From: a virus
UHGV virus genome: UHGV-1541349
DNA length: 35,932 nt
Direction: 5' to 3' (one strand)
The position numbers were made by a program, and so were the translations under genes. The notes beneath the pieces are model-generated. The model searched no databases and was not told the origin of the DNA. It saw only the letters and a program-made list of their open reading frames with translations. Within the stretch, counting starts at the first letter, position 1, and every line of letters begins with the position of its first letter. Positions 1 through 30,881 of the stretch are shown in pieces.

Positions 1-81
1 TTGCCCACCTCAATTTTAACTGATTATTGATATTGAAAACTCGTACTTTTAACTGATACAGATATTTAGGAAACCATAAAT

Positions 82-447
82 TTATTTGTCCAAGATTCTA
101 TCCATAATATTTCTTAGTTCTTGTCTGGTTGATTCTATTTTAGCAAGCAACGTTTTGATCAATGAGGGTGAAAAATCAACTGTGCGTGGATCGTTAGCTA
201 ACCACAGTTTAAGTAACCCACCAAGTCGACCAAGATCAGCATTTACTCGGCTAAGCTCTACAACCTGTTCAATATCTACAATAGACTCAACCTGATAACC
301 CATTGCTACTTTACGAATGAAGCTCGCTACACTTAAGCCAGATGCTTCTGCATTTTCCTGGATTTGCGCTTTTTCATCTGGCAAACAATAAACTTTAATT
401 GGTGTACTATTTTTTCTAGTCTGAGAAACGGTCATATCATTCTCCAT
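82..447 (-). CDS. Ribbon-helix-helix relaxosome accessory protein, MobC-like (putative)
   Basis: N-terminal RHH-like segment (IKVYCLPDEKAQIQENAEASGLSVASFIR) and C-terminal LGRLGG motif resembling the MobC family. Family assignment is from motif recall only. Any relaxase partner would lie beyond the window start. Confidence 0.4.
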   Translation of the reverse strand: MENDMTVSQTRKNSTPIKVYCLPDEKAQIQENAEASGLSVASFIRKVAMGYQVESIVDIEQVVELSRVNADLGRLGGLLKLWLANDPRTVDFSPSLIKTLLAKIESTRQELRNIMDRILDK

Positions 448-717
448 ACAGGCGGTAGCCGATCAGCCTCGCAGAGCAGGACTCCGTTGAGCAGCCCAGC
501 TGCTAATAAGAGAAGGTAAAGTAGAAGCACCGTTTACGGTGGGCCTACTTTACATGTCCTGCCCTACATTTGCCGTTGTGAATCTGTGTACGTATTGTGT
601 ATTCCTGTGTACTCAGTGTGTTTTCCTAAAGCATTTGTGCAGGATTAGTAGTGTAAAAATGTGCAGCATATGTGTTTATTGGAAGGGAAATTATTTGAAT
701 GACCCTAAGAAATATTT

Positions 718-1011
718 TTATTCTCGCGGCTTGGGTTTTGGCGGCCTGCCACGTTTCCTTTGAAACCTATTTATCTCTTTCGCTATATCGTCATTTTCTG
801 TCTTTGACTCAACAGATTTATCTATCCAATCCTTAACATCTTCTCTACGCCAGAGAAGACGTTTATTACCGGGAAGACGGCATCTTGGTGGAAGACATTT
901 TGGATTTCGCGTTGCATCACTGCGGATACTTTTTACAGTTTTCTTTAATGCAAAAGCCAACTCTTCAACGGTTATAAGTTCTGGCATAACTGATTTCATC
1001 GAAGAACCCAT
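718..1011 (-). CDS. AlpA-family HTH regulator / excisionase-like DNA-binding protein
   Basis: Small basic protein with an AlpA/Xis-like HTH (ITVEELAFALKKTVKSIRSD...LPGNKRLLWRREDVKDWID). Typical of integrative elements. Exact start uncertain. Confidence 0.55.
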   Translation of the reverse strand: MGSSMKSVMPELITVEELAFALKKTVKSIRSDATRNPKCLPPRCRLPGNKRLLWRREDVKDWIDKSVESKTENDDIAKEINRFQRKRGRPPKPKPRE

Positions 1012-1036
1012 CTCTCAGTAGAAATTTGAGGATTTT

Positions 1037-1058
1037 AGCGGCTAAAATTTTAGCCGCT
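1037..1058. promoter_or_regulatory. Perfect 22-bp palindrome (agcggctaaaattttagccgct), candidate operator upstream of the AlpA-like gene
   Basis: Read directly from the sequence, 26 bp upstream of the AlpA-like start at 1011. The operator role is inferred. Confidence 0.4.
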
Positions 1059-1311
1059 AAAGTTTGCTAACCAACGTTATGAATTGAGAATAATTAAAAC
1101 TTACTGGCAAAAAGAATAATGTCAACAGGATTTTTATTCATCGGATTTTTACTCCATATGAAATTGGTTTTATTGACCGATTTCTGAATGACACTAAGGT
1201 TTTAATAATTCCTTTAATCTTTTTGGTTATATAAAAGGTTAAAGATCAGGTTAGAGAGGTGTGGAAAAGCGATATATTCATTTGTATATTATGACAATTT
1301 TAAATTATATC

Positions 1312-1372
1312 CGTACCTCAAATGTCATGAAAGCGTACCTCATATGTCATAAAGGCGTACCTCATATGTCAT
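1312..1372. repeat. Three tandem 17-bp direct repeats (cgtacctcaWatgtcat) with 22-bp phasing; iteron-like
   Basis: Copies at 1312-1328, 1334-1350 and 1356-1372 inside a roughly 900-bp AT-rich non-coding stretch. A consensus DnaA box (ttatccaca, minus strand) lies at 1422-1430. Confidence 0.8.
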
Positions 1373-1920
1373 ATAATAAAAAATAAGCAAACAAGTTATA
1401 CACAATATTATTCACAGAATCTGTGGATAAATACACAGATTATACATGATAAAATAGATTGTTTAGCTAAACTAAATAGCAATAAATAAAATGAAACAAA
1501 ATGTAAATAACAGAGAGTTGTAGATAACTTATAAATTTGGTTAGCTAACCTTTATAAGAAACACTGTTTGTAAAAGATTCATTTCTGACAACGGATATAT
1601 CGAAATTTAGTAAGTAAAATGCCACAGCTAAATCTTTTATATCATTTGTTTAGCTATACTATTTTTACTAAGGGTTATGTATATCTAAACTACAAAAACA
1701 GCAATGCAAAAGATAAACGGGTAACAATCGTAGAAAAGCTTTGTTGCTGAGGGGTTACCCTCATTGGAAACCGGCTTGAGATAAGTATCATATGAGGATA
1801 TCAAATCCGACTGGTGAGGCCAGGTTTGATAATTTGAAGCGCTGGACGTAGCGTAGATGCCACAATAGAGGAGACAATAGTAAATTAAATTATAAGATAA
1901 ATGCAGATTTTTGTTTCGCT

Positions 1921-2235
1921 ATGAAGTTATCACTGAAGATAAAGTATTCTAAGATAGATGAATGTGAGGTTGCCATGACAACGATGAAAGCTAGACCCAG
2001 TTCTGTTGCGGATATTCTTTTAAATGAGTATTTGAAACCTTTAGCTATGTCTTCACGTGACTTAGCTAATTTGATGGGAGTACCTTATAGCAGAATTGAC
2101 GATATATTACGACACTCTAAAAATATAAGTAATAGAGAGGGGGAATTACTTTCTAAAATCTTCAATACTGATAGCGATTTTTGGATAAAACTTCAAGAAA
2201 ACTATATAAATCATACATGCAAATTCCATAAATAG
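1921..2235 (+). CDS. HigA-like XRE-family HTH protein (antitoxin-like), no cognate toxin seen
   Basis: HTH resembling HigA/VapI antidotes (SRDLANLMGVPYSRIDDILRHSKNISNREGELLSKIF..FW). True start may be the internal Met at 1975. No HigB/RelE-like ORF is adjacent. Confidence 0.5.
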   Translation: MKLSLKIKYSKIDECEVAMTTMKARPSSVADILLNEYLKPLAMSSRDLANLMGVPYSRIDDILRHSKNISNREGELLSKIFNTDSDFWIKLQENYINHTCKFHK

Positions 2236-2499
2236 TGCATAAACGCTAACTTAAGGCATATATTATTTGTACTACGCCGTTGTATTAAAGAGAGATATCA
2301 AGCAACAAAAATCAACTATAATAGGTAAAAAATCAGTATGAAGGAATTATCACAATCTGCACGATGGTTCTAATATAAATTTAGTAAAATAAAACATAAA
2401 TCATTTCCGTATAAAAAGATGGCCAGGTCTTTATCATCGACCCAGCCAATTAGTAAAGGATTTTTCATTTCAAACTCATTAAACCTTAGGCATAAAACC

Positions 2500-4989
2500 T
2501 TAATGTTCAATATCTATTTGATTATCAATTTGAATAATGTTTTGAATCTCACTGTAAATATCAATGTTCTCATCTGGTACATCTATGCTAACCAATAAAC
2601 TATATTTAACATTGTTAATATAGCGATCCTGCGCAGTACGATATTTCCACCATCCACCAACAGGATAGACAGCGATAGTATTCATCTCTGTTAAATCTGC
2701 AGCACTGCCTTTCCAAGCATCTGAGTGTAATGAACCTCTAACTCTGAGTTGAGGCCCCAGAAACCATCCTGACGCATCTCCTTCAGGTCCATTGTATTCT
2801 TCATTATTCGCATTACGGTTTATCGAAGCACGGAAATTTTCAAGGGTCTGATTAGGTCTAATAACTGCAAATCTCAATCCATGAGATTGATACGAATATT
2901 GTCGTCTGAATCCTTTTTGACTTGGATTAGGTTCAATAAAATACGACAATGTGATTCTTAAAATAACATTTGTTTCTGGTGGTAGTAAGCGAAGAGCTTC
3001 TACGGGCCAAGGGAGTGAAAACAGATGCATTTCATTCAATGTAGGATCAGTAGAACCATCTCTTTTAAATGGGGTGATTTCCGACTGAGATATTAATGTA
3101 AGTGCATTTTCCGCACTATGCATTGCTCGATTTAAATTAGGTACTCCATAACCAACCATCCTTAATAAGCTTTCTTTAGCCGATTTTGGTGTCCCCTGTG
3201 CACGTTCTGTTCTATATCGTTCGTGCATACGACTAGTCCATCTTGCTGTATGAACAAGTAATCCCCTAATAGTTTCAGGCCAATATTCTGGGTACTGAGC
3301 CATTAGCATAGCAGCATGTTTTGATACTAGAGCACAGGCTGCGCTAGTATCTGAATTAACTTCAAACAATTGATTTGTTGCCCTGCCAGAGGTTGTGAGC
3401 AAAGATAATTCAATTGTATTTGTGATTTCATCACGGCTAGGTGATATAAGTTTGTTTCCGCCTTCCTCTACTAAATCTGGCTTATATGGGGCATGCTTTT
3501 TCCATCCCCAGGATACCGATGACCGAGATGACGGTGCAATATCTTCTGACATAGCGAAAGGAGACCAACCATCATATTCGCGGTCTGTATGGGTTGTTTT
3601 ATCAGTATACGCCCCTACAGTTAATGCATTCCAAGATTGAGCAGGATCTTCAATTTCAGCAAGAGTCACTGAATCCCAATAATCTAATTCTAAATTTGTA
3701 GGTTGAGAGTTACCCGCAGAAATTATAAATAATCTGCGGATATCATCCTCTAAACCAAAACTAAACTTGTCAATCTCTGCAGACCATGAGGACGGTTGGC
3801 CTCCAAGAGTATTAGGCTCTGCTGTCACAGCAAGCGAATAAACTCTGCGCCAGTTCGGGTTTTCCAGCTCCAGACGACTTGACGTTCCTGTAGTAATAGC
3901 TCCATAAAGATTAGGATCATTAGTAGCTCTTGGAGGTAGTATCCTTCCTGATTCGATATTGTACGGAATCGAAATGTCCTGATCGTTCAATAAAACAGAC
4001 AGGAAATCTCCATAAACACATAGTCCTGCTTGTCTGGAACCGTGGTCATTATAAGGCCTTTGATTATAATCATCGAAAAGTGGCCAAGATATGTCCCAAG
4101 CAGCTGCCAGTGATGAGTTAGTAAATCTAGATAATAGTGGATTATTGTAGTTAACACCTGTATCTAATATACAAACAGAAACATCAGCTTCATTGTTACG
4201 CGTAATTCTTGCAGCAACATTTTCTGCCCACTGATGCTGTTCTGTAGGTAAGGAATTAACTATAACTGATATATCATCCCTCGCTGATCTTATCTCTTTT
4301 AAATTAGATATTAATTCAGGACAAACTTTTAATCTCGATAGACTCGTACGGATAAGAACAACAGTAGTATCGAAAAAATTAATAGAAGTATTCCCGAGCC
4401 TTCCATTAATTCTTTCGCATAAACGCCGAGCAATATTTAGCACATCCTCCTTATTACCCTTAAGCCAAAGCTCAAACCACTTTTCAACACCGTGATCATC
4501 CGGAATAAGATCTTTTTTATCTGTCCAGAAAGAAGTTATATCTGCTAACTCGATATTTTGTATGCTATCAATTAACAAATGATTTCTAGGGAACTCGATA
4601 CCATCCTTCGATGGATTCAAATAGTCATTTATTTTTTTAGTGAATTTAGTTCTGTCATTTTCATTAATGTATATAATCGCAGTTTCACGATTATTTGATT
4701 TAACTAAAGAACAAAGCTTGAAATAAGTATTATCGATTTTATCTATAGGAAGATCGCATTGTTCAAAACTGATTAGCCTAACATAAATCCCTTTTTCATC
4801 AGTAACAGGGGGAAGCCTCGGTCTTTCATCATAATGATTCAATATACGGCTATACTGATTTAGTAATGATATACCATGTACCGCTCGATCACGAGCTGGG
4901 ACTTGGGGACTACGACCATTGCTCCTAGAGCGATAGTTTTCGGGGGAAACATAGCCGTTTAATAAAATATGCCTCTTGTTGGTAGTCAT
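2500..4989 (-). CDS. ietS: Subtilisin-like S8 serine peptidase with N- and C-terminal extensions (IetS-like)
   Basis: S8 catalytic motifs in the correct order: D (VCILDTGVN), H (NDHGSRQAG), S (DTSAACALVSKHAAM). Lies 9 bp downstream of an AAA ATPase on the same strand, the architecture of the IetAS defense pair. Symbol is by architecture only. Confidence 0.7.
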   Translation of the reverse strand: MTTNKRHILLNGYVSPENYRSRSNGRSPQVPARDRAVHGISLLNQYSRILNHYDERPRLPPVTDEKGIYVRLISFEQCDLPIDKIDNTYFKLCSLVKSNNRETAIIYINENDRTKFTKKINDYLNPSKDGIEFPRNHLLIDSIQNIELADITSFWTDKKDLIPDDHGVEKWFELWLKGNKEDVLNIARRLCERINGRLGNTSINFFDTTVVLIRTSLSRLKVCPELISNLKEIRSARDDISVIVNSLPTEQHQWAENVAARITRNNEADVSVCILDTGVNYNNPLLSRFTNSSLAAAWDISWPLFDDYNQRPYNDHGSRQAGLCVYGDFLSVLLNDQDISIPYNIESGRILPPRATNDPNLYGAITTGTSSRLELENPNWRRVYSLAVTAEPNTLGGQPSSWSAEIDKFSFGLEDDIRRLFIISAGNSQPTNLELDYWDSVTLAEIEDPAQSWNALTVGAYTDKTTHTDREYDGWSPFAMSEDIAPSSRSSVSWGWKKHAPYKPDLVEEGGNKLISPSRDEITNTIELSLLTTSGRATNQLFEVNSDTSAACALVSKHAAMLMAQYPEYWPETIRGLLVHTARWTSRMHERYRTERAQGTPKSAKESLLRMVGYGVPNLNRAMHSAENALTLISQSEITPFKRDGSTDPTLNEMHLFSLPWPVEALRLLPPETNVILRITLSYFIEPNPSQKGFRRQYSYQSHGLRFAVIRPNQTLENFRASINRNANNEEYNGPEGDASGWFLGPQLRVRGSLHSDAWKGSAADLTEMNTIAVYPVGGWWKYRTAQDRYINNVKYSLLVSIDVPDENIDIYSEIQNIIQIDNQIDIEH

Positions 4990-4997
4990 TTCATCCC

Positions 4998-5984
4998 TTA
5001 TTGTCTACTTTCTTGCCTACGCTTTATAGCCTTTACTAACAAATCGGTTGTAATATTGTTTGCATTATAAAGCACTGATTCTTTGGCAGCATCTTCACTT
5101 GCTCGCGTGATCTCCGCTGCACTTAGACCTGAAGCACTATCAATGATCTCACTCCAAAATAAATTACCGAGGTCAAAGACAGCGAGTCTCTGTTCAATAA
5201 GATTCCTGATTAGATTATCCTCAGGCCTTGTGAACGGTATAATATCGTCAAATCGTCTATATAAGGCGCGATCTAAAAGCTCTGGATGATTGGTTGCAGC
5301 TAAAACTATGCTCTCAGAATCATCCTGCTCTACAAACATTAAAAAAGAATTTAAGACCCTACGAATTTCTCCAACGTCATTCTGAGCGCCACGCTGAGTT
5401 CCTATAGCATCGAACTCGTCAAAAAAATATACAGCTCTTGTTTGCCGTATGTGGTCAAAAATTAAACGCAGCTTAGCTGCAGTTTCACCCATATAGCGAG
5501 TGATTAGATTATCTAAGACGACTGTATAAAGTGGTAGCTTTAACTCTGTAGCAATGACTGATGCGGACATTGTCTTACCAGTACCGGGAGGACCAGTGAA
5601 AAGAATTTTTCTTCTTGGAATAAGCCCAAACTCAGAAAGTTTATCTTTCTGTTTTTGTTCAAGCAGAACCTGATTCAATCTTTCCCTAACGCTTCCAGAA
5701 ATCACCAGATCTTGAAGATGTACTGGCTTGTTCGTTTGCTCAAGTAACCCCTTAAGATCACCATCAGGCTGCTTAACAAATGGTGTAAGTCGTTTTTCAA
5801 CTAAACCTACAGAACTCGTTGTTTTCTGATTTTTATCAACTAAGTTTTTTATATCATTAGCAAGCTTATGATGACCTTGCCTTGCTTCCTTAGCTGCCAC
5901 CTGCAAAGCAATAGAAAAGAAACGCTGATCATCACGATCAACGTGGCTTTTCAATAAAGCTTTGATCTGCTCTGCAGTAGCCAT
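4998..5984 (-). CDS. ietA: AAA-family ATPase (IetA-like)
   Basis: Walker A GPPGTGKT and Walker B VYFFDEFD in a classical AAA fold. First gene of a two-gene operon with the S8 peptidase. Confidence 0.7.
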   Translation of the reverse strand: MATAEQIKALLKSHVDRDDQRFFSIALQVAAKEARQGHHKLANDIKNLVDKNQKTTSSVGLVEKRLTPFVKQPDGDLKGLLEQTNKPVHLQDLVISGSVRERLNQVLLEQKQKDKLSEFGLIPRRKILFTGPPGTGKTMSASVIATELKLPLYTVVLDNLITRYMGETAAKLRLIFDHIRQTRAVYFFDEFDAIGTQRGAQNDVGEIRRVLNSFLMFVEQDDSESIVLAATNHPELLDRALYRRFDDIIPFTRPEDNLIRNLIEQRLAVFDLGNLFWSEIIDSASGLSAAEITRASEDAAKESVLYNANNITTDLLVKAIKRRQESRQ

Positions 5985-6448
5985 AACCCCTCATACTCCC
6001 TTGTTCTCTTGTTGCAAAGTTTACTATAAATTCATTTAGTTCGACATCGTTACCTACCTGCTCATTACAGGAAAGTAATACCTTCATGAGCGTATCATCA
6101 ATGATCAAAGTGTAATCAAACACCTAGGCATAGTACCTTCACTACGTGAACTGTATCACTCATTGTTATGTAACCTGAGTGTCCCTTTCTGGCACTTAGC
6201 TCTATCGGATAATGTATTTAAGCTGTTAATTTATAAGATTTTTCATCACTAAACTGTCTTTCATGCAACGCATCGATAAGGTCAACACATTACGTTTATA
6301 AGGAAGTAGTTTGTTTAGCGTAATGATGCAAATGCTGACCAATTAGCTTTGCCACAATTTTGCCACACCTACAACGCGCAAAATTGCACATTAGTGTTGA
6401 ACAAAGCAAAATACTGCAATAGTAACTTGATGATTTTACGAGAAAAGA

Positions 6449-6494
6449 TGGTGCCGATAATAGGAGTCGAACCTACGACCTTCGCATTACGAAT
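6449..6494 (-). other. 46-nt 3' fragment of tRNA-Thr (thrW-like, anticodon loop to CCA): prophage attachment-site core
   Basis: Minus-strand sequence attcgtaatgcgaaggtcgtaggttcgactcctattatcggcacca matches the 3' part of enterobacterial tRNA-Thr(CGU) as recalled, then diverges 5' of the anticodon loop. Typical of an att junction distal to the integrase. Confidence 0.7.
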
Positions 6495-20931: not shown

Positions 20932-21873
20932 TCAGATACCGTCCACGTAGGACAGGGTTTCTTTGTACACTGGCTCAACCGCACCGAGCTTGCCGTAGTA
21001 GGTCGCAATCTGATACAGACCGCGATACTGGACAGGAACGCTCTGCAACGGCACCAGCGGATAGCGCACGTATTTCTTGTCGTTGGTGTAGGCGATCATA
21101 CGGTCTTTACCGCCAACCCCACGCCCTTTCAGCCATTTGACCGCTTTGATTTCAAGCGGAACGCCGTTCTGGTGGAAAGCGATAGTGTTCACAGCCAGAT
21201 AGGTCAGCAGTGACTGGTTACCCGCTTCGGAAACCTTACGGCTCGCCAGCAGTGAATACTGCTCTGGCGGAATGCGCAGATCAGAAGGCACGATGGAATA
21301 ACCGGATGCTGCCCAGGCATTAGACAGAATGCTGTTCACGCTATCGAGGATCTCGTCGTTGGTTGAGTTCGCCCAGGTCTTCGGCGCGTTGTTCAGCGTC
21401 ACACCGACGAGGTTTGCCAGACCTTTCAGGCCGAGTGCGTCATCACCGATGTAAACCTGCTCGTCGTTGTCCATCTGCCATTTGAGCTGCATCCCGTCGT
21501 ACTTCTGGGTATCAATCGGGCGGCCTACCTGCTGAGCAGCTGCCAGCTCTACAACGGTCCAGCCCAGTTCCATACCCCAGAGGTTCAGTGGATTGCCGTC
21601 TTTGCTGATATCCACGTTCACGCCAGCAATAGCGGTGGAGTCTTTGCCTACCCAGTTTTTACCATTCGGATTTGCACCAGTACCCGCAGCGGCGAAGCTG
21701 GTATTCGTCCAGCTGGAAATGTCATCTGCGATAGACACGTCTTCACGCAGTTGAATATCTCGGGTCCAGGTGTACCCCACCAGAGGCAGGTTCAGCGTCT
21801 GGTCGAGTCGCTCCAGCTCCCCGATGAGAAAGGCACCGGAGCTATCTACGGTTGCCTGATCAAAAGTAATCAT
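20932..21873 (-). CDS. Major capsid protein (Mu gpT-like)
   Basis: 313 aa, located after the protease/scaffold and a small head protein. Confidence 0.6.
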   Translation of the reverse strand: MITFDQATVDSSGAFLIGELERLDQTLNLPLVGYTWTRDIQLREDVSIADDISSWTNTSFAAAGTGANPNGKNWVGKDSTAIAGVNVDISKDGNPLNLWGMELGWTVVELAAAQQVGRPIDTQKYDGMQLKWQMDNDEQVYIGDDALGLKGLANLVGVTLNNAPKTWANSTNDEILDSVNSILSNAWAASGYSIVPSDLRIPPEQYSLLASRKVSEAGNQSLLTYLAVNTIAFHQNGVPLEIKAVKWLKGRGVGGKDRMIAYTNDKKYVRYPLVPLQSVPVQYRGLYQIATYYGKLGAVEPVYKETLSYVDGI

Positions 21874-30725: not shown

Positions 30726-30801
30726 TGGTGCTGGTTAACGGACTTGAACCGCTACCCATTCGCTTACAAGGCGACTGCTCTACCATTGGAGCTAAACCAG
30801 C
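30726..30801 (-). tRNA. Phage-encoded tRNA, anticodon UGU (Thr-like)
   Basis: 76 nt ending in CCA. Manual fold gives 7-bp acceptor, D and T arms, and anticodon loop CTTGTAA. Anticodon assignment is manual and unverified. Confidence 0.55.
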
Positions 30802-30806
30802 ATGTT

Positions 30807-30881
30807 TGGCGGGACAGCGTGGACTCGAACCACGATAAGAAGGTTAACAGCCTTCCGTAATGACCTTTATACGACTGACCC
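30807..30881 (-). tRNA. Phage-encoded tRNA, anticodon GUU (Asn-like), one acceptor-stem mismatch
   Basis: 75 nt ending in CCA. Perfect anticodon stem GAAGG/CCTTC with loop CTGTTAA, T-stem CGTGG/CCACG, and a T.T mismatch at acceptor pair 4-69. Confidence 0.5.

Follow-up and report, generated by a model that had tools for sequence, protein, structure and literature searches.

A replicase-less island at thrW carries an origin-like region of IncP-1 plasmid type, a candidate helper-dependent satellite origin

What would fire an iteron-like origin that lies in DNA without a replicase gene? This question is raised by a stretch of 35,932 nucleotides of the virus genome UHGV-1541349 (hereafter the window), in which a first reading made without database searches (the sequence-only reading) had noticed three 17-bp direct repeats at 22-bp phasing next to a DnaA box, within a long AT-rich non-coding stretch with recurrent ttagcta motifs. 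As no Rep gene was visible, either a cryptic or satellite-type replication origin or a phased array of regulator or integrase binding sites had been proposed. We find that this region belongs to an integrative mobilizable element of ~11-14 kb inserted at thrW, and that its layout is that of the replication origin (oriV) of IncP-1 plasmids. On balance, we favour the view that positions 1012-1659 form the cis-acting replication and control region of this element, a helper-dependent satellite origin that would be fired by the TrfA protein of a plasmid.

Repeat searches of the window returned three direct units of 22 nt, starting at 1312, 1334 and 1356 (a spacing of two helical turns) and spanning 1312-1377, and Tandem Repeats Finder reported the same array (1312-1373, period 22, 2.8 copies, 92% matches, score 103). 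The 17-bp core of each unit (1312-1328, 1334-1350 and 1356-1372, plus strand) reads CGTACCTCA(A/T)ATGTCAT in all three. An exact DnaA box, TTATCCACA, is found at 1422-1430 on the minus strand, inverted with respect to two one-mismatch boxes, TTATACACA (1396-1404) and TTATTCACA (1408-1416); further one-mismatch boxes start at 1260 (TTTTCCACA, 1260-1268, minus strand) and 1519. With up to one mismatch allowed, the 35.9-kb window contains 17 DnaA-box matches, five of which fall inside 270 bp, and 17 matches were reached in none of 100 shuffles of the window. On the other side of the iterons, at 1198-1260, lies a putative AT-rich unwinding element made of GGTTA-type 12-mers, clear at 1225, 1237 and 1249 and degenerate at 1198 and 1212; read on the opposite strand (TAACCnnnnTTT, TAACC...), they resemble, and are not equal to, the RK2 13-mer TAAACnTTnTTTT. 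Identical E. coli records annotate no gene in the surrounding gap (1012-1920, 909 bp), Rfam finds no RNA family there, and the GC content of the gap is low (0.286 over 1001-1500 and 0.338 over 1501-2000). Thus, the phased repeats, both DnaA boxes first pointed out (1422-1430 and 1396-1404) and the 29-34% GC non-coding stretch were all recovered, with additional near-copies of the box.

In a sensitive DNA search against plasmids, all matches were to conjugative MOBP/MPF_T plasmids from Enterobacter, E. coli and Klebsiella. They lie where the IncP-1 oriV is located, in an unannotated interval bounded by klcA (or higBA) on one side and by the 3' end of trfA on the other. Window positions 1237-1445 are collinear with the klcA-trfA interval of pEC187_3 and pKPC2_sg2, the unwinding repeats, a DnaA-like box, the iterons and an inverted DnaA-box pair following one another in the same order, and the iteron core is identical to those adjoining trfA in these two plasmids. 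Compared with pEC187_3, the window has the GGTTAAA-type 12-mer repeats (1198-1260 being collinear with the GGTTAAA block of the plasmid oriV), the TGTGGAAAA box (to which the box at 1260-1268 aligns), the ~45-bp spacer, and iterons of sequence CGTACCTCAwATGTC at 22-bp phasing, three in number against seven plus two more before trfA in the plasmid. The inverted pair at 1408/1422, TTATTCACAgaatcTGTGGATAA, aligns to the plasmid pair TTATCCACAgattccGTGGATAA. The GC-rich block of pEC187_3 is absent from the window.

The comparison with RK2 rests on published consensus sequences. The RK2 origin comprises DnaA boxes, five 17-bp iterons and an unwinding element with four 13-mers (PMC4980987, PMC4081077), and its iteron consensus is TGACA(G/C)(A/T)TGAGGGGC (PMC9499019). 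The reverse complement of the window iteron, TGACATATGAGGTAC, agrees with it at 12 of 15 positions. Overall, the island region and the IncP-1 oriV (RK2/RP4, pEC187_3, pKPC2_sg2, pMCR_1511, pRX7.1 and pCFSA664-2) share TGACAnnTGAGG-type 17-bp iterons at 22-bp spacing, DnaA boxes on the iteron side away from the putative unwinding element, and identical KorA and KorB operator sequences; AT-rich 12/13-mers stand on the other side in both, those of the island being only similar to the RK2 unit. They differ in that the island has neither the GC-rich block nor trfA in cis and three iterons instead of the five of RK2 or the 7+2 of pEC187_3, that its copy is chromosomal and within an integrative element, and that the operators stand directly beside the origin. 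The proposal of an iteron-type origin is thus supported by collinearity with an oriV located beside trfA in IncP-1-like plasmids. An origin of the repeats as fragments of an insertion sequence (IS) or REP element was considered and rejected, since they match only IncP-type origins and sister islands.

No initiator gene accompanies this region. Translated searches (tblastn) with TrfA identified no homologue in the window or across 40 kb of E. coli flanking DNA; one weak match at 21210-21482 (27% identity, E=0.008) lies in a prophage and was taken as chance. None of the genes of the intact islands scanned matches a Rep protein, and an Enterobacter island with the same gene set likewise has no replicase. 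The absence of Rep first noted for the window therefore extends to the whole element, and for want of such a gene the island probably depends on a visiting plasmid to replicate. The satellite-type origin suggested earlier gains support from this, its activity being predicted from sequence.

We next consider the ttagcta motifs. The window contains ten TTAGCTA matches, all in its first 2.1 kb and five of them in 1463-1656. In RK2, the operators of the regulators KorA and KorB are OA = GTTTAGCTAAAC and OB = TTTAGC(C/G)GCTAAA (PMC2680271), and by consensus match the ttagcta motifs are predicted KorA operators. OA1 (1461-1472) is an exact GTTTAGCTAAAC and is invariant in all loci, including both Enterobacter relatives described below. 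OA2 (1539-1550) is an OA-like 12-bp palindrome, GGTTAGCTAACC, a symmetric variant of OA of which the Enterobacter loci keep 12 of 12 bases. OA3 (1648-1659), GTTTAGCTATAC, has one mismatch and forms the last bases of the conserved backbone; in most relatives it is an exact GTTTAGCTAAAC, ~25 bp upstream of the ATG of the antitoxin gene higA. Two predicted KorB operators, both exact consensus matches, stand in tandem 23-50 bp upstream of the start codon of an alpA-like gene: OB1, TTTAGCGGCTAAA, at 1034-1046 and OB2, TTTAGCCGCTAAA, at 1049-1061. OB1 is identical across the E. coli family loci examined and takes the other consensus form, TTTAGCCGCTAAA, in the more distant Enterobacter relative; OB2 has one mismatch in 4 of 9 aligned loci and is exact in that relative. 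Beyond 1034, 1049 and 1461, the 35.9-kb window holds no further exact OA or OB copy. Plasmid pCFSA664-2 contains eight exact OB and two exact OA, indicating that the RK2 operator sequences are in use in this plasmid group. A CTP-dependent clamp of the ParB type, KorB loads at OB and slides over up to 1.5 kb, and KorA locks sliding KorB at OA, which results in promoter repression (PMC11790492). The sequence-only reading had thus seen the motifs correctly without recognising either the KorA/KorB operators or the integrative mobilizable setting.

Additional motifs were observed in the same region. TTAGCTAA palindromes also occur at 193-202 in traJ (GTTAGCTAAC, a 10-mer equal to the core of 1539-1550) and at 2062-2069 in higA, and may be due to chance or be extra sites for the same regulator. 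All family members share an invariant GGATATATCGAA at 1593-1604 amid diverging surroundings, the 82%-identical Enterobacter copy included; it may be a TrbA-operator-like site, its plasmid matches being only approximate. A sigma-70 scan returned fewer sites than in shuffled sequence and did not define the promoters of the alpA-like gene or higA. By eye only, a minus-strand TTGGTT-16-TAAAAT, below the threshold of that scan, overlaps the OB pair.

Is this arrangement maintained? Conservation was assessed in 18 family loci of E. coli type (11 distinct sequences) and in two independently identified relatives from two Enterobacter species, L026 (92% identity) and L027 (82%). OB1 and OA1 are kept in 18 of 18 E. 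coli-type loci, where OB2 and OA2 also persist, and three iterons at 22-bp phasing in 17 of them, L006 having four; the phasing is kept everywhere examined, both Enterobacter loci included, so that the loss of phasing in homologous loci, which the sequence-only reading had named as grounds for refutation, is not observed. L027 retains two exact OB, the 12-mers (30 of 35 bases in the unwinding repeats), three iterons at 22 bp, OA1 and OA2. The Enterobacter loci provide the cleaner test: in L027, 154 of 175 predefined motif positions are conserved (88%) against 280 of 473 (59%) in the other non-coding backbone (Fisher p=3.5e-13); the corresponding figures for L026 are 158/175 and 393/473 (p=0.025). 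Among the nine distinct island sequences that carry iterons of the window's type (type A), variable columns number 0/51 in the iterons, 0/88 in iterons, OB1, OA1 and OA2 together, and 62/499 outside the motifs; the 0/88 subset was chosen post hoc and is not relied on. A scan for two phased iterons in contigs from one genome per species found nothing, and a protein-based scan found only the two Enterobacter relatives. Distribution outside E. coli is thus poorly sampled here.

A second line of evidence comes from islands in which the iterons have been exchanged. Two loci, L009 and L006, have the same backbone with GCCCCTCA-type iterons, GCCCCTCAwATGTC (type B), the reverse complement of which, TGACATATGAGGGGC, agrees with RK2 at 14 of 15 positions. 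The replaced patch extends over 137 bp, from the last 12-mers up to the third iteron. With the oriV of the IncP plasmid pRX7.1 it shares 99.3% identity, and with that of pMCR_1511 and of ~40 other plasmids ~95%, always beside trfA. The TTTTCCACA of 1260-1268 is swapped for TGTGCAAAA in type-B islands and plasmids alike. After the swap L009 has three type-B iterons and L006 has three of type B and one of type A; the plasmids continue to seven. TrfA proteins form two groups matching the iteron types, with ~77% identity between and 86-99.7% within groups, the differences being concentrated near the C-terminus. In complete E. coli genomes the type-A patch occupies 57 chromosomal and 8 plasmid places, and the type-B patch 5 chromosomal and 51 plasmid places. 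The exchange of iteron cassettes shows that islands and IncP-1-like plasmids have met in one cell, and that the module was replaced rather than decaying.

The element that carries this region was defined by comparison with chromosomes. At least 17 complete E. coli genomes contain an island beside thrW/proA to which window positions 1-6494 are 100% identical, and dozens of further E. coli chromosomes carry 600-1659 at 91-97% identity. The intact copies measure 11.2-13.9 kb and have a 47-bp repeat at both borders. From the left, they contain a tyrosine integrase gene, a variable slot, a gene for 70 residues, trbL, trbK, trbJ, and traJ with the transfer origin (oriT); the right half comprises the alpA-like gene, the origin-like region, higA, variable defence cargo and thrW. 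The genes int, alpA, trbJ and trbL co-occur in the intact relatives L006-L008, L016, L019, L020 and L027. In the identical E. coli copies, the left, integrase-side part is broken by IS1, IS5 and other IS elements. As these copies have no intact left end, the island of this window is probably stranded, though its origin sequence is intact.

These data suggest how such an island might replicate and move. An IncP-1-like conjugative plasmid of matching TrfA specificity (for this copy, the pEC187_3/pKPC2_sg2 type) would enter or reside in the cell, its TrfA would bind the three iterons, and host DnaA would bind the adjoining boxes. The GGTTA-repeat region would then melt and the excised island would replicate as a plasmid-like circle. 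Plasmid KorB would load at the OB pair, which would act as a centromere, and partition the circle with IncC; alternatively or additionally, KorA at OA would lock KorB and silence the promoters of the alpA-like gene and of higA and the cargo. Transfer would use the traJ and oriT of the island together with the relaxase and pore of the plasmid. That IncP helpers would induce excision, replication and transfer we infer indirectly, from the recombination with the IncP plasmid oriV. More tentatively, we propose that islands lacking their own genes for replication, partition and relaxase could borrow all three functions through cis sites of the helper, namely oriV iterons for TrfA, OB/OA for KorB-IncC and KorA, and oriT for the relaxosome, and that they could track TrfA specificity by cassette swaps.

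Related islands are known. PIMEs, defined in a preprint of January 2026, are IncP-helper-dependent islands, mostly at guaA, with int, alpA, repA and their own four-iteron oriV, traJ/traI, trbJ-K-L and immune cargo; they excise and replicate with IncP helpers, and PIME1 lowers the amplification of pB10 (bioRxiv 10.64898/2026.01.12.698999). GIsul2 and the "IncP islands" encode RepA or RepC (PMC5704250). The thrW family shares with all of these the tyrosine integrase, an alpA-type gene, traJ and an IncP-like oriT, trbJ-trbK-trbL, defence or resistance cargo, and IncP helpers, proposed or shown. In contrast, those elements encode RepA (or RepA and RepC) beside oriV and lie mostly at guaA, whereas the thrW family has no replicase and carries plasmid-type TrfA iterons and KorA/KorB operators, which the PIME paper leaves unmentioned: its survey required a replicase, and KorA and KorB have 0 occurrences in its text (bioRxiv 10.64898/2026.01.12.698999). 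SGI1, which depends on IncA/IncC helpers, replicates only when the helper is present, carries two mimics of the helper parS, remodels the helper mating pore and is incompatible with the helper. However, SGI1 encodes a Rep and has an oriV of its own, which AcaCD of the helper switches on, whereas here the initiator itself would be the helper's; the helper family and all sequences are also unrelated. Surveys of E. coli defence islands list relaxase-less islands with VirB5/VirB6 among the carriers of defence genes. In the literature, of which our coverage is incomplete, we found no described replicase-less island of such kind carrying the iterons and operators of its helper.

A number of observations weigh against a working, TrfA-fired origin. 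Only three iterons are present here and in almost all relatives (four in L006), compared to five in RK2 and seven in related plasmids, and the GC-rich block beside the plasmid unwinding element is absent from the island. Type-A islands (57) far outnumber type-A plasmids (8) in E. coli, where type-B plasmids are common. Among close E. coli relatives, all motifs taken together are only borderline conserved (10/149 variable columns against 62/499, p=0.054) because the DnaA boxes and OA3 vary, the DnaA boxes being the least conserved motif (6/36 columns variable in type-A islands). With KorB operators placed over it, the alpA-like promoter would be expected to be repressed by the helper, which is awkward given the helper-induced excision of PIMEs. 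An extrachromosomal form of the island was not found in PLSDB, nor was any genome found with both island and matching plasmid. Finally, we infer replication and the binding of TrfA, KorA and KorB from sequence, as we do partition and regulation, on the grounds of the architecture, homology, conservation, cassette exchange and lack of a rep gene described above.

How, then, do other explanations fare? The main rival is that the region is a decoy or incompatibility module, in which iterons and OB would titrate TrfA and KorB or handcuff the plasmid oriV without supporting replication. By lowering the copy number or stability of IncP-1-like plasmids, it could limit the cost of the helper or expel it after transfer. 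Three iterons indeed fall short of the five to seven found in working plasmid origins, motif conservation and the tracking of specificity fit a decoy as well as an origin, and there are precedents in PIME1, which lowers pB10 amplification, and in SGI1, which destabilises its helper via parS mimics. However, a pure decoy would not need the full origin grammar in plasmid order and spacing, including unwinding 12-mers with 30 of 35 bases kept at 82% overall identity, and a single chromosomal copy of three iterons is a weak titrator; we therefore hold this explanation to be unlikely, if a serious contender. A non-functional relic, i.e. an origin remnant merely carried along in a backbone assembled from IncP-1-like plasmid pieces (oriV, operators, oriT and trb), would account for the loss of trfA, four iterons and the GC-rich block relative to the plasmids, for the IS-disrupted left end of this window's lineage and for the borderline test among close relatives. 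It is less likely in view of motif constraint and plasmid cassette exchange: a strong motif footprint is seen in the Enterobacter element of 82% identity (88% versus 59%, p=3.5e-13), the three-iteron 22-bp layout is found in 18 of 19 full-length loci including both Enterobacter (L006 has four at the same phasing), and the recent cassette replacement in L009 retained it. The alternative offered by the sequence-only reading, an arm-type array for the island integrase/excisionase or another island regulator unrelated to replication, draws on the proximity of phased direct repeats to an excisionase-like gene and is highly improbable; position and identity with plasmid iterons exclude it. Of the attachment repeats, one (6448-6494) is ~5 kb further right and the other adjoins int at the far left of the island, the phased repeats are the plasmid iteron sequence found beside trfA, and two repeat types occur on one int/alpA backbone. 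Hence a satellite origin dependent on plasmid TrfA is the reading that we prefer.

The genomic context also favours this reading, since TraJ/oriT and TrbJ of the island stem from the same family of plasmids. Of the PIME-type gene set, the window includes no more than traJ and the alpA-like gene. traJ (82-447, minus strand), which encodes an oriT-binding relaxosome accessory protein, matches the NCBIfam TraJ equivalog at 163 bits (cut-off 134) and is NikA-like in Pfam. The adjoining oriT region (465-564, minus strand) matches the Rfam traJ-II motif (RF01760, 87.3 bits, E=1.8e-16), DNA homology to the traJ-oriT of the plasmids extends over 134-579, and a nick-like TCCTG|CCC, which we take to follow the RP4 nick consensus, lies near 557-564 beside traJ. 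The traJ-II "RNA" motif coincides with an oriT-like inverted repeat and the nick-like sequence, and may describe oriT DNA rather than RNA. Identity to the proteins of pCFSA664-2 is 89% for TrbJ, 73% for TraJ (L008 copy) and 58% for TrbL. Between oriT and the alpA-like gene, at 584-627, a 21-bp tandem repeat, CTGTGTACGyAkTGTGTATTC, occurs in two copies (three in L009). The alpA/excisionase-like small gene (718-1011, annotated start 999, minus strand) is nearly invariant across the family. We assign it from its match to PHROG 66, "excisionase and transcriptional regulator" (E=1.8e-6); it also matches PHROG 6355 (E=1.9e-31) and has no Pfam or NCBIfam match. In other islands, the variable slot encodes either a 296-residue multi-pass membrane protein and a VbhA-like small gene or a 465-residue coiled-coil/membrane protein. 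The two unassigned genes beside int encode hydrophobic and coiled-coil proteins; this slot (9116-10513 in L007, 9617-10721 in L008) matches only unnamed PHROG families.

Homology among islands ends at 1659, the last base of OA3, and cargo begins beyond. It starts with an orphan higA antitoxin gene (1921-2235, RefSeq start 1921 or 1975, plus strand; NCBIfam HigA equivalog, 53.7 bits), the product of which is 43% identical to HigA of the HigBA pair beside oriV in pRX7.1, a pair also found beside oriV in pMCR_1511. No higB remnant was found upstream of higA, and the island is without HigB; the orphan HigA could neutralise the toxin of a helper plasmid, as an anti-addiction factor. Next come the anti-phage genes of an IetAS system (2500-5984, minus strand), IetS at 2500-4989 and IetA at 4998-5984 (PADLOC, E=2.9e-34 and E=5.5e-77, respectively). 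In sister islands the cargo slot holds Pycsar, a methyltransferase with HEPN and DUF262, AAA with HNH, DUF4297 with a coiled-coil gene, HamA-type genes, and others. The right-end attachment repeat (6448-6494), the 47-bp 3' part of thrW, recurs beside the integrase at the left end and matches phage attP sites for thrW. A 112-nt "tRNA-Ser" annotated by RefSeq at the left junction (L006 14397-14508, L007 7888-7999, L008 8397-8508) overlaps this repeat and probably reflects misannotation of the duplicated tRNA end. The rest of the window (6495-35932) is a SEN34/Omnitron-like myovirus prophage, in tandem at the same thrW attachment core and running past the window end, with its own tRNA-Thr(TGT) and tRNA-Asn at 30726-30881.

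Borrowed transfer machinery and the triggering of an island's own Rep are known; a borrowed replication initiator would be new, and the family offers a natural test case for the number of iterons that a TrfA origin needs. The IncP-1-like plasmids in question are carriers of mcr-1 and KPC genes (e.g. pMCR_1511 and pKPC2_sg2). If our reading is true, an island living on the plasmid initiator and ParB-type regulator would compete for TrfA and KorB, so that plasmid copy number, stability and spread could change, and would meanwhile move anti-phage systems between Enterobacteriaceae.

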